A stretch of 18,223 nt of DNA from a virus (IMGVR_UViG_3300029875_000034:1-18223), one strand, 5' to 3'. Positions 1 to 5,913 are shown, counted from the stretch's first letter. Notes: generated from the letters alone by a model not told the origin. Translations and numbers: made by a program.

Positions 1-69
<69 letters not shown>

Positions 70-72
70 TAT

Positions 73-147
<75 letters not shown>

Positions 148-153
148 GTTAGA

Positions 154-199
154 GTCTTTCAGTCTGCGATGATGGGAAATCCCGGAGTGACTGAAAGAC
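154..199 (+). repeat. Perfect 11-bp inverted repeat (GTCTTTCAGTC / GACTGAAAGAC) around a 24-nt loop, immediately downstream of tRNA-Gly
   Basis: Arms at 154-164 and 189-199 are exact reverse complements; the loop holds a GGG-AAAT-CCC mini-hairpin. No clean U-tract follows. Confidence 0.6.
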
Positions 200-206
200 G
201 TTTAAG

Positions 207-278
207 TTATGAATGATCGCTTTTTTTGCAAAATTGCTGTGCAGAAATACTAACCTTCGGGCAGGCGATCATTCATAA
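207..278 (+). repeat. Perfect 14-bp inverted repeat (TTATGAATGATCGC / GCGATCATTCATAA) separated by a 44-bp T/A-rich spacer
   Basis: Arms at 207-220 and 265-278 are exact reverse complements. Function unknown; could be a protein operator or an RNA stem. Confidence 0.6.
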
Positions 279-353
279 GCACTCTGCTTTTATTCCGATT
301 AACTGTGGGTGGTTTGTTGGATAGAGTGCTTCCCTTACTGTATATATCGTTTC

Positions 354-378
354 GCCCGCTTTTGCGGGTTTTTCTTTT
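354..378 (+). terminator. Intrinsic terminator upstream of the lysis cassette (possible tR'-equivalent late terminator)
   Basis: Stem CCCGC (355-359), loop TTTT, stem GCGGG (364-368), then T-rich tract TTTTTCTTTT (369-378); about 60 nt upstream of the holin start. Confidence 0.6.
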
Positions 379-438
379 CAAATCCCTTTCATTTCTCAGT
401 GTAAAACTACGCCATCCGTTATTTGCGGAGGTGAGGCT

Positions 439-654
439 ATGAAATCCATGGACAAAATTTCAACGGGCATTGCCTACGGCACCTCCGCAGGCAGTGCTGG
501 CTACTGGTTTTTACAGTGGCTTGATCAGGTCAGTCCGTCACAGTGGGCTGCGATTGGTGTACTGGGGAGTCTGGTTCTGGGCTTCCTGACTTATCTGACA
601 AATCTGTACTTCAAAATCAGAGAAGACAAGCGTAAGGCTGCACGGGGAGAGTAA
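439..654 (+). CDS. S: Class II pinholin, phage 21 S-type, with dual-start motif (Met1/Met4, antiholin/holin)
   Basis: 71 aa beginning MKSMDK; two hydrophobic helices ([19 protein letters not shown] and [18 protein letters not shown]) and a charged C-terminus ([13 protein letters not shown]). RBS GGAGGTGA at 427-434. Close to the S21 / DLP12 essD sequence as I recall it. Confidence 0.85.
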
Positions 655-658
655 TTCA

Positions 659-1009
659 ATGACTCAAAACTATGAACTGATTGTGAAAGGGATCCGCAAT
701 TTTGAGAATAAAGTTACGGTAACTTTAGCGTTACGGGACAAAAAACGCTTTGACGGCGAAATTTTTGACCTGGACATCTCGCTGGACCGTGTTGAAGGTG
801 CCGCGCTGGAGTTTTATGAGGCAGCAGCCAGAAGGAGCATCAGACAGGTCTTCCTGGATGTTGCTGCCGGGTTATGTGAAGGGGATGAGCAGTCGCCGGA
901 AAAGCGCCCCGTAATTTTAGAGGCGCAGAATGTGTGGATAACCTACAAAGGAAAGCTACCAGGAAGAATTACTGGTTCTCTGAAGACTCCTCCGGAATCA
1001 CAACCTTAA
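659..1009 (+). CDS. Hypothetical 116-aa protein inserted between holin and endolysin
   Basis: ORF with RBS GGAGAG 7 nt upstream of the ATG and 4 nt after the holin stop. No signal peptide or TM segment. It occupies the same position as ydfR-type (DUF1327) genes in some E. coli prophages, but I cannot confirm homology without a search. Confidence 0.55.
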   Translation: MTQNYELIVKGIRNFENKVTVTLALRDKKRFDGEIFDLDISLDRVEGAALEFYEAAARRSIRQVFLDVAAGLCEGDEQSPEKRPVILEAQNVWITYKGKLPGRITGSLKTPPESQP

Positions 1010-1072
1010 GTCACTGACCGGAACAGATAAACCTGTCCGTGGGCAGAAACCGATAAATCCTGATAAATATCC

Positions 1073-1606
1073 ATGAACGCAAAAATCAGATACGGCCTGT
1101 CGGCTGCCGTTCTGGCACTGATTGCCGTCGGTGCGCCCGCGCCTGATATTCTCGACCAGTTTCTGGATGAAAAAGAAGGTAACCACACAACGGCATACCG
1201 CGATGGTTCCGGCATCTGGACCATCTGTCGGGGTGCCACGATGGTGGATGGAAAACCCGTTTTTCCCGGTATGAAACTGTCGAAGGAAAAATGCGACCAG
1301 GTCAACGCCATTGAGCGTGATAAGGCGCTGGCATGGGTGGAGCGCAATATTAAAGTACCACTGACCGAACCACAAAAAGCGGGTATCGCGTCATTTTGTC
1401 CCTATAACATTGGCCCCGGTAAGTGTTTTCCATCGACGTTTTATAAGCGGCTGAATGCTGGTGATCGTAAGGGCGCATGCGAGGCGATTCGCTGGTGGAT
1501 AAAAGATGGTGGGCGCGATTGCCGCATACGTTCAAATAACTGCTATGGACAGGTTATTCGTCGTGACCAGGAAAGCGCATTAGCCTGTTGGGGAATAGAT
1601 CAGTGA
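1073..1606 (+). CDS. SAR endolysin (GH24 phage lysozyme with N-terminal signal-anchor-release domain)
   Basis: N-terminal Gly/Ala-rich weakly hydrophobic segment [16 protein letters not shown]; catalytic E-x8-D-x5-T triad in [16 protein letters not shown]; size 177 aa. The RBS is weak. Confidence 0.8.
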
Positions 1607-3175: not shown

Positions 3176-3526
3176 ATGCCAGCACTAATCCCACGAGCCT
3201 GCCGTAAACGTGGATGTGCAGGTACAACCACAGACAGTTCTGGTTACTGCGATAAACATCGTGGCGAAGGATGGGTACAGCATCAGCGCGGACTGAGTCG
3301 CCACCAGCGTGGCTATGGCTCGAAATGGGATGCCATACGTGCGCGCATACTGAAGCGTGATAATGATCTGTGTCAGAACTGCCTGCGCAATGGGAGAGCC
3401 GTTGAAGCCAGAACTGTGGACCACATCATTCCGAAAGCTCATGGTGGCTCGGATGCAGACAGTAACCTGCAGAGTCTGTGCTGGCCCTGCCATAAAGCAA
3501 AAACAGCGCGCGAACGCATCAATTGA
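3176..3526 (+). CDS. HNH endonuclease (terminase-associated, HK97-type packaging module)
   Basis: HNH motif DHIIPKAHGG...NLQSLCWPCHKAKT with flanking Cys pairs (CRKRGC, CQNC, CWPCH); positioned immediately upstream of the small terminase. Confidence 0.85.
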   Translation: MPALIPRACRKRGCAGTTTDSSGYCDKHRGEGWVQHQRGLSRHQRGYGSKWDAIRARILKRDNDLCQNCLRNGRAVEARTVDHIIPKAHGGSDADSNLQSLCWPCHKAKTARERIN

Positions 3527-4156: not shown

Positions 4157-5913
4157 TGGCAAAAGTGGCTGACGGGATCCGCTACGCCGAACGCGTTGTT
4201 GCAGGAGAAATTGTTGCTGGCGAATTTGTCCGTCTGGCTTGCCAGCGTTTTCTTGATGATCTGAAGTACGGCGAAGAGCGGGGGATTTATTTCAGTGAAC
4301 CCCGTGCGCAGCACATCCTGAATTTCTACAAATTTGTGCCTCATGTAAAAGGGGCGCTGGCAGGTCAGCCCATTGAACTGATGGACTGGCATGTTTTTAT
4401 CCTCATTAATATTTTTGGTTTTGTCATTCCGCTGGTGAATGAAGAGACCGGGGAAGTTGTCATGCGCAGCGATGGCAGCGGACGCCCGGTGATGGTGCGC
4501 CGTTTCCGGACAGCGTACAACGAAGTCGCCCGTAAAAACGCAAAATCAACCCTGTCATCGGGTATCGGCCTGTATATGACGGGGGCAGATGGTGAAGGCG
4601 GTGCTGAGGTGTATTCAGCCGCAACCACGCGTGACCAGGCCAGAATCGTGTTTGAAGACGCCAAAAATATGGTCAGAAAAGCCCGGTCGACACTCGGGCG
4701 GTTGTTTGATTTCAACAAGCTGGCGATTTACCAGGAGCAGAGCGCATCAAAATTTGAACCGCTTTCCTCGGATGCAAACAACCTGGACGGTCTGAACATC
4801 CACTGCGCCATTATTGATGAGCTGCATGCTCATAAAACCCGTGACGTGTGGGACGTTCTGGAAACGGCAACCGGTGCCCGTCTGCAGTCCCTTTTATTTG
4901 GCATCACCACGGCTGGCTTTAACAAGGAAGGGATTTGTTACGAGCAACGCGATTATGCCATCAAGGTATTGCGAGGCTATAACAGCGACGTGGAGGGCGC
5001 GGTAAAAGACGACTCCTACTTTGCAATTATTTACACGCTCGATGAGGGAGATGATCCGTTTGATGAAACGGTCTGGCAGAAAGCGAATCCCGGCCTGGGC
5101 ATCTGTAAACGCTGGGATGATCTGCGTCGTCTGGCGAAAAAGGCGAAGGAGCAGGTCTCGGCGCGGGTGAATTTTTTCACGAAACACATGAATGTGTGGG
5201 TCACTGCCGAATCTGCCTGGATGGACATGATTAAGTGGGAGAAGTGCGAATACATTGCTCCACAGCATGAGCTGAAAACATATCCCATGTGGGTCGGCGT
5301 CGACCTTGCTCATAAGATTGATATCTGTGCGGCGGCAAAACTCTGGCGAACCGATAACGGACATGTTCATGCCGATTTTAAATTCTGGCTTCCGGAAGGA
5401 CGGCTGGAACGATGCTCGCGGCAGCAGGCAGAACTTTACCGGAAGTGGGCAGAGATGGGAAAGCTCATCCTGACGGATGGTGATGTTATCGATCATGCTC
5501 AGATAAAAAGTGACTTACTGGAATGGATTGGCGGTGAAAACCTGAGGGAACTGGGATTTGACCCGTGGAGCGCAATGCAGTTCAGTCTGGCGCTGGCTGA
5601 AGAAGGGATACCGCTGGTGGAAGTTCCGCAGACGGTCCGCAATCTGTCAGAGGCTATGAAGGAAACGGAATCACTGGTTTATGCCGGACGTTTCCACCAC
5701 AGCAATCATCCGGTCATGAACTGGATGATGTCTAACGTTACGGTAAAACCGGACAAAAACGACAATATCTTCCCGAATAAATCCACGCCTGAAGCCAAAA
5801 TCGACGGCCCTGTTGCGATGTTTACAGCAATGAGCCGCATGCTGGTCAATGGCGGTGAACCGGAGCCGGATCTGTCTGAACATCTGGTCAGCGTGGGTAT
5901 CCGTTCGCTTTAA
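4156..5913 (+). CDS. Terminase large subunit (ATPase + nuclease)
   Basis: 585 aa; Walker-type ATPase region and C-terminal nuclease-like region; located between terS and portal. Confidence 0.9.

Follow-up and report, generated by a model that had tools for sequence, protein, structure and literature searches.

A conserved three-hairpin RNA domain predicted in the 3' trailer of a tRNA operon of lambdoid prophages

Two long perfect inverted repeats lie between the tRNA genes and the lysis genes of a lambdoid phage, and the question is whether they are DNA sites, transcription signals or parts of an RNA. The stretch of DNA analysed (the window, 18,223 nt) has the same sequence as an induced lambdoid prophage, Escherichia phage vB_EcoS-689R5 (ON470583), whose numbering is given below as L001. 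An inverted-repeat search recovered both repeats with the arms, loop and spacer that the initial annotation had described for 154-199 and 207-278: arms of 11 nt separated by a 24-nt gap and arms of 14 nt separated by a 44-nt gap, in both cases 100% complementary. Across the whole window, no other perfect inverted repeats were found whose arms reach 11 bp and whose loop is no longer than 60 nt. The accompanying statement that they are longer than chance palindromes was borne out by 100 dinucleotide-preserving shuffles, in which the mean count of arms of at least 11 bp was 0.14 and arms of at least 14 bp occurred in none (0/100). A third adjacent hairpin (279-331), itself an inverted repeat, and a kink-turn-like loop in the first hairpin had not been noted before.

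The three hairpins, SL1, SL2 and SL3, were each predicted to be more stable than shuffled sequences when folded singly (z = -4.95, -5.37 and -3.89, respectively). Folding of 145-380 gave -83.2 kcal/mol on the + strand (z = -5.56), 18 kcal/mol better than the -65.1 kcal/mol of the - strand. The fold and the comparisons below indicate that the two repeats are SL1 and SL2 of a conserved three-hairpin RNA domain of ~180 nt (154-331, + strand), hereafter the element. Its parts and surroundings are listed in Table 1. A277 and A278 have alternative partners in U330 and U331, and the G/U-rich 3' side and loop of SL3, GUGGGUGGUUUGUUGGA (305-321), is nearly invariant among homologues.

Table 1. Features of the window around the element (window coordinates unless marked L001)
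Feature	Position	Strand	Details and basis
tRNA-Thr(UGU), third gene of the array	1..69	+	5' end cut by window edge; Rfam tRNA 54.8 bits
tRNA-Gly(UCC), last gene of the array	73..147	+	CCA 6 nt before SL1; ARAGORN; Rfam tRNA 64.9 bits
A/U-rich linker GUUAGA	148..153	+	CCA end to SL1; sequence
SL1	154..199	+	11-bp perfect stem 154-164/189-199; inverted repeat and fold
SL1 internal pairs	G166-U188, C167-G187	+	U165 bulge; fold
SL1 kink-turn-like loop	G168 A169 U170 bulge; G171-A186, A172-G185 (sheared); U173-G184	+	
SL1 top	174-176/181-183	+	GGG/CCC, loop AAAU; fold
SL2	207..278	+	14-bp perfect outer stem 207-220/265-278 closing a three-way junction
SL2 inner helix P2a	223-230/240-247	+	UUUUUGCA / UGUGCAGA
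SL2 small hairpin	254-255/259-260	+	fold
SL3	279..331	+	outer stem 279-286/322-329; inverted repeat and fold
SL3 inner helices	294-298/317-321 and 301-304/311-314	+	fold
A/U-rich variable spacer, SL3 to terminator	332..351	+	20 nt; divergence among relatives
Intrinsic terminator	352..375	+	stem GCCCGC/GCGGGU, loop UUUU, U tract; terminator scan (L001 7354-7369) and fold
Holin S, first lysis gene downstream	439..654	+	64 nt past terminator; ORF list; phrog_9876, phrog_20; annotation

Pairing was compared across homologues in two alignments, A1 (23 diverse SL2+SL3 sequences, aligned with MAFFT) and A2 (17 diverse SL1 sequences). Standard pairs occupied 96.7% of the cells in A1, compared to 33-51% when the partners were slid, and 95.2% in A2, compared to 39-53%. 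Both partners had changed in ten pairs of A1 (the SL2 outer stem contributing five, the SL3 outer stem four and an SL3 inner helix one) and in four pairs of A2. In the SL3 outer stem, these changes included swaps of UA/CG (12:8), CG/UA (13:9) and CG/UA (15:7). Support for the inner helices of SL2 and SL3 came mainly from one-sided changes, and the SL2 inner helix varied on one side only in A1. The SL2 loop served as the search pattern, which biases its apparent invariance in A1; at locus L167, which was found via another pattern, P2a is replaced by UUUUUAU/AUAAAAA with the helix kept (by eye). G-U outnumbered A-C cells by 117:12 in A1 and by 41:3 in A2, an excess which indicates that the folded molecule is the + strand RNA, in the sense of the tRNAs and late genes. 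A small structured RNA was one of the possibilities raised in the initial annotation, and it is the one favoured here: in homologous phages, where a lack of conservation had been named as refuting, the hairpins persist through compensatory changes and show a + strand G-U excess.

At the level of DNA, the repeats might be an operator or another palindrome bound by a protein, a site for recombination or packaging, or the ends of a miniature transposable element (MITE). Such roles would be in keeping with the perfect arms in the window, and SL2, at 72 bp with 14-bp terminal inverted repeats, has the size of a very small MITE. The same G-U excess argues against them, since pairing is kept only as + strand RNA; the arms covary and present no fixed recognition sequence, and spacers of 24 and 44 nt are unlike those of operators. 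The operator suggested earlier is disfavoured, as many pairs are G-U, which the opposite strand, or a cruciform formed by the DNA, would have as A-C mismatches. A MITE was rejected because each genome has only 1-3 copies, none of them on a plasmid or outside this prophage context. We regard a DNA-level role as most improbable.

Kink-turns comprise a canonical stem ending in C-G, a 3-nt bulge and tandem sheared G-A/A-G pairs, with GA on both strands. At the sequence level, positions 166-176/181-188 of SL1 fit this consensus (GC/GAU/GA-UGGG ... CCCG-GA/GU). The kink-turn positions G171, A172 and A186 were present in 17/17 diverse homologues and G185 in 16/17, and this invariance is no artefact of selection because the homologues were gathered via the SL2 pattern. 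The stems flanking the internal loop covary, and the apical loop varies freely. The SL1 internal loop is thus a predicted kink-turn, which is a motif (found in Kt-7, the U4 snRNA 5' stem-loop and box C/D RNAs) and not a family. Its strands AUGAUGG and CGGA (CUGA at L087 and L111) resemble box C and box D, respectively; there are no guide regions, so this is not a box C/D guide RNA.

Among 39 close relatives, per-site divergence was 0.007 in SL1 and 0.006 in SL3, compared to 0.003-0.005 in the tRNAs and 0.113 in the spacer 332-351. These values indicate that the element is under purifying selection, and the tRNA-like conservation, together with the covarying fold and the predicted kink-turn, points to a selected function.

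The initial annotation had located the repeats in the late promoter and Q-utilisation region. Gene Q (L001 5954-6643 in ON470583) lies upstream of the window. A promoter-like site, TTGCAA-17-TATATT (L001 6627-6655), overlaps its end, and a strong terminator hairpin (~L001 6706-6730) follows ~50 nt past that site. Judged by sequence, this is the usual late promoter/terminator layout, and it precedes the tRNAs and falls outside the window. The repeats therefore do not lie in the late promoter and Q-utilisation region. A second, sigma-70-like site, TTGCAA-17-TATTAT (L001 6800-6828), ends 10 nt before the first of four tRNA genes with anticodons CAU, UUU, UGU and UCC. The window starts within the third, which is annotated as tRNA-Thr-TGT in ON470583 and placed by ARAGORN at L001 6994-7069. 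In most loci whose array begins with tRNA-Met(CAT), a sigma-70-like promoter ends 10-11 nt (usually 10) ahead of the first tRNA, diverged variants included; it reads TTGCAA-17-TATTAT, TTGCGT-17-TATCAT or TTTGCA-18-TATTAT. HK639 has no recognisable tRNA promoter, so the element there may be transcribed from the late promoter only.

By a strict scan, 40 of the 62 unique variants have a terminator beyond SL3; the remaining 22, inspected by eye, mostly had a weakened copy of the GCCCGC hairpin, which brings the total to ~55/62. By eye, the terminators that follow the element are of several hairpin types. The conserved succession of promoter, tRNAs, element and terminator suggests an autonomous moron with its own transcription unit, which is a putative tRNA operon inserted between the Q/late-promoter region and the lysis genes. 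In the window, tRNA-Gly ends at 147, the element occupies 154-331 and the terminator 352-375, the position of a 3' trailer. From this arrangement we infer that the element is the 3' trailer of the tRNA operon and belongs to a single transcription unit. The hairpin at 352-375, previously taken to be the late terminator, is better read as the predicted end of this separate operon, with its conserved promoter, and of the RNA.

Could the region nevertheless be part of the late promoter, Q-utilisation site or late terminator, or encode a small protein? It does sit between Q and S, and a hypothetical protein of 43 codons is annotated on the - strand in two phage records (window 250-381; L001 7250-7381), spanning SL2, SL3 and the terminator. 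The late signals are accounted for upstream of the tRNAs, as described above. Q-utilisation sites are specific to one Q, and four Q families (phrog_304, 943, 753 and 127) accompany the element, which argues against such a site. Homologues have indels and wholly different terminators inside the minus-strand frame, and these, with the covariation, indicate that it is a spurious ORF; a short + strand ORF, MMGNPGVTERRLSYE, becomes MMGSPE in HK639 through an indel (by eye). Both parts of this explanation seem scarcely credible. The locus merits annotation as an RNA, where two phage records at present have a hypothetical protein on the opposite strand.

The element was found in 536 of 5,426 complete E. 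coli genomes (~10%), in 1-3 copies each, on the chromosome only and never annotated. A scan of one genome per species was positive for E. coli, Shigella flexneri, Citrobacter sedlakii and Phytobacter ursingii. About a tenth of complete E. coli genomes, together with some Shigella, Citrobacter and Phytobacter prophages, would thus carry an unannotated RNA beside tRNAs and before lysis genes. No model strain for which RNA-seq or RIL-seq data exist was found to carry it. Only six phage records contain the element. Homologues occur in HK639 and in four induced E. coli prophages, and a scan of viral contigs yielded ~100 loci with ~30 variants that share less than 95% identity. The neighbouring genes vary, with the four Q families and different holins and endolysins, and the element is always downstream of Q and upstream of the lysis genes. 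The HK639 homologue (~77% identity) lies in the Q-to-lysis leader, downstream of the first terminator annotated by the depositors. Its tRNA array (L002 4900-5055) is reduced to remnants, a 3' part resembling Asn(GUU) and a tRNA-Gly without its 5' half, and the element is intact. PGAP continues to annotate tRNA-Gly at this type of decayed site in some E. coli genomes.

The full element also occurs without an upstream tRNA at L004, L078 and L153, and at L078, L117 and L153, as in Fels-1, it follows a protein-coding moron with no tRNAs. Single hairpins were found as well: SL2 alone in Fels-1, SL3 alone at L144, downstream of Rz, with its apical sequence kept and a different outer stem, and SL1 at L262 with a different long downstream hairpin. 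Given these single occurrences, independent modules, for instance signals for processing or stability, fit at least as well as one integrated RNA. In some prophages (L153 7480-7612 and L038), a small hydrophobic ORF (…IQVALIGVICVVVSLCGTVFLVRSILFNSF) has its stop codon inside the SL2 5' arm. Small genes annotated as DUF3927 fill the same slot in EPEC E2348/69 prophages (L295 and L297).

Does the element belong to a described RNA family? In a search of window positions 1-1200 against Rfam at E values up to 10, only tRNAs passed and the element was unmatched, and eight related loci gave no match on the element at Rfam gathering thresholds. Rfam models for STnc100, AgvB, AsxR, Esr41, isrB, isrI, GOLLD, ROOL, riboswitches and ribozymes gave none at threshold. 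HK639 5040-5300 returned sub-threshold matches only, to istR (26 bits, threshold 45) and isrB (22.5 bits, threshold 35); the weak istR, isrB and rsmX matches were carried by the terminator hairpin and were rejected. SL2 (72 nt) was detected as tRNA-like neither by ARAGORN nor by the Rfam tRNA model. A 9-mer shared with GcvB, GUCUGCGAU, and a UUUGCAA-like stretch are not collinear, and the Rfam GcvB model did not match; we consider this likeness to be chance. IpeX of the K-12 prophage DLP12 was also discarded, as nmpC is on the other strand and the element-search model R1 had no match in 572,000-580,000. A literature search that covered the conserved 14-mers as text, HK639, prophage external transcribed spacers and late-promoter sRNAs found no description of this RNA. 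With respect to Rfam 15 and the searchable literature, the element is an undescribed family of a known kind, the prophage structured small RNA.

RNAs of this kind have been reported from the same position. Two reports describe late-leader sRNAs of lambdoid prophages that are encoded after antiterminator Q and before the holin/lysozyme genes and that end in intrinsic terminators (10.64898/2026.05.13.724894; PMC7547250). The element has this genomic slot in common with STnc100 (RF02076), PasD, PasA/PasC, StxS, AgvB, AsxR and Esr41. The EPEC Pas sRNAs adjoin the holin as the element does, and the PasA and PasD1 sequences, taken from the supplement of PMC8550237 and from E2348/69, are unrelated to it. 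Identity with Pas was rejected, PasA being on the opposite strand and R1 having no match in the late regions of E2348/69 PP2, PP4 and PP5. Copies of STnc100 lie between Q and the holin in Fels-1 (L296 1272-1485, 1686-1808 and 2809-3027) and also at L078, L060, L110 and L153, and the L110 leader contains isrI, isrK and C4 in addition; the occurrence of all these in the same leaders marks a region rich in small RNAs. In Fels-1, a copy of STnc100 takes the place of SL3 before the same terminator and holin leader.

Transcription control was considered in two forms, a put-like antiterminator and a riboswitch-like attenuator that gates read-through of the tRNA operon into the holin gene. Kink-turns and three-way junctions also occur in riboswitch aptamers, and the element is located directly 5' of an intrinsic terminator and the lysis genes. 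HK639, a carrier of the element, is known to use put-type RNAs in its early operons and has both kinds, which are alike in being structured lambdoid RNAs of adjacent stem-loops. In size, shape and position the two differ, put RNAs being ~70 nt, V-shaped two-hairpin structures with a triplex, which follow early promoters and bind the beta' zinc-binding domain (PMC9378689), whereas the element is a three-hairpin tRNA trailer of ~180 nt directly before a terminator. When the A1 (SL2+SL3) and A2 (SL1) profiles were run with nhmmer over 18.7 kb of HK022 (22,000-40,751), which includes the replication genes and the Q-holin interval and should span early promoters and put sites, only chance-level matches were obtained (E of 3 or more). 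The terminators after the element differ in sequence and in distance and SL3 is constant, which rules out a conserved alternative pairing that involves the terminator. A constitutive tRNA promoter that read into the holin and endolysin genes would mean death of the lysogen. Control of transcription is thus very improbable, in either form.

The reading that we prefer, with a probability of about 0.55, is that the element is part of a stable trailer RNA that acts in trans by binding protein or RNA; from the sequence features we infer its processing, stability, action and partner. The tRNA operon would be transcribed in lysogens from its own sigma-70-type promoter and, during lytic growth, would also be read through from the late promoter. 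The A/U-rich linker just past the CCA of tRNA-Gly, which has GUUUAA or GUAAAA at the same place in homologues, is a likely site of endonucleolytic 3' processing, by analogy with tRNA 3' maturation in E. coli. The connection to tRNA 3' processing that the initial annotation had listed is plausible on this analogy. Cleavage there would free an RNA of ~225-230 nt, with SL1 shielding its 5' end and the terminator hairpin its 3' end. The freed RNA may then work in trans through recognition of its invariant parts, the SL1 kink-turn serving as an architectural motif or one that binds protein, and the top of SL3, rich in G and U, as a surface for binding RNA or protein. E. coli is not known to have an L7Ae-type kink-turn-binding protein, which counts against this reading. 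An Hfq-dependent base-pairing sRNA would have an intrinsic terminator with a U tail, an A/U-rich stretch ahead of it and a conserved single-stranded seed. The region has a terminator with a U5CU4 tail and the A/U-rich spacer 332-351; in its best-conserved candidate seed, the G/U-rich stretch 305-321, most bases are paired in the consensus fold, an unusual state for a seed.

In kind, the RNAs nearest to the one proposed are the late-leader sRNAs described above, 3'ETS-leuZ and two stable RNAs of phage T4. 3'ETS-leuZ is the 3' external transcribed spacer of E. coli glyW-cysT-leuZ, carries an intrinsic terminator and is freed by tRNA 3' processing; it is a chromosomal, Hfq-bound sponge of ~50 nt with one terminator hairpin. 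The biogenesis that we propose is of the 3'ETS-leuZ type, whereas the element belongs to a prophage trailer of ~230 nt with three hairpins and a predicted kink-turn, and its sequence is unrelated. In the virulent phage T4, the stable RNAs species 1 and 2 (rnaC and rnaD) are structured and are co-transcribed and processed with the tRNA cluster; the element differs in occurring in temperate lambdoid prophages at the 3' end of an operon, before the terminator. GOLLD and ROOL, which are in Rfam, are prophage RNAs of 500-800 nt near tRNA genes, mainly in Firmicutes and other phyla. Like them, the element, at ~180 nt, is a structured prophage noncoding RNA adjoining tRNA genes. If a stable RNA is indeed produced, it would be a new family among the late-leader RNAs that rewire host regulation (StxS, AgvB, AsxR, Pas and STnc100) and a second, much larger functional trailer of a tRNA operon.

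The explanation that competes most directly with a trans-acting RNA is a module for processing, stability or insulation in cis, in which the hairpins act singly and the freed RNA has no function. In lytic growth, tRNA excision would cut the Q-dependent read-through transcript and SL1 would block 5'-end-dependent RNase E decay of the lysis and structural mRNA. In lysogens, the hairpins and terminator would keep transcription of the tRNA operon from reaching the lysis genes, which are lethal. It is established that 5' stem-loops are protective in E. coli, SL1 starts 6 nt past the tRNA-Gly CCA, and the hairpins are found as separate modules in other prophages. Moreover, the element always lies between Q and the lysis genes, nearly always with a terminator next. 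Simple protective hairpins, however, would not need an invariant kink-turn core and SL3 apex, and the loci with a full element but no upstream tRNA are not explained by tRNA excision. Other genes or terminators may also intervene before the lysis genes, namely two more terminators in HK639 and a DNA methyltransferase gene at L017. Taken together, these points leave a role in cis unlikely, if still a serious contender.

A further possibility is that the RNA is a protein-binding partner delivered with the phage tRNAs, the kink-turn and SL3 apex recruiting or sequestering a protein. Candidate partners would be a defence nuclease that targets tRNAs, an enzyme of tRNA maturation or modification, or a ribosomal protein. 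If this possibility were correct, the complex would be a kink-turn ribonucleoprotein new to E. coli and its phages. We hold it to be improbable.

Among ~60 related loci, the second gene of the array (L001 6915-6991) differs, and is called by ARAGORN as Lys(UUU), Arg(UCU), Phe(AAA), 'Stop(UUA)' or a tRNA whose anticodon loop is odd; it carries no annotation in ON470583. The gene may be in decay, or it may be tRNA-like and deliberately kept variable. The first gene, tRNA-Met(CAU) (L001 6838-6913), probably resembles the ileX-type tRNA-Ile2 of E. coli. If so, the array would decode the A-ending codons AUA, AAA or AGA, ACA and GGA.

Two further features of the window were observed downstream. The Shine-Dalgarno sequence of holin S and its start codon lie between the arms of a perfect 10-bp inverted repeat (424-433/480-489, TGCGGAGGTG / CACCTCCGCA), which recalls the dual-start control structure of lambda S. 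An annotated HNH homing-endonuclease gene (3176-3526) lies directly upstream of the small terminase subunit gene, in the arrangement of HK97-like cos phages.
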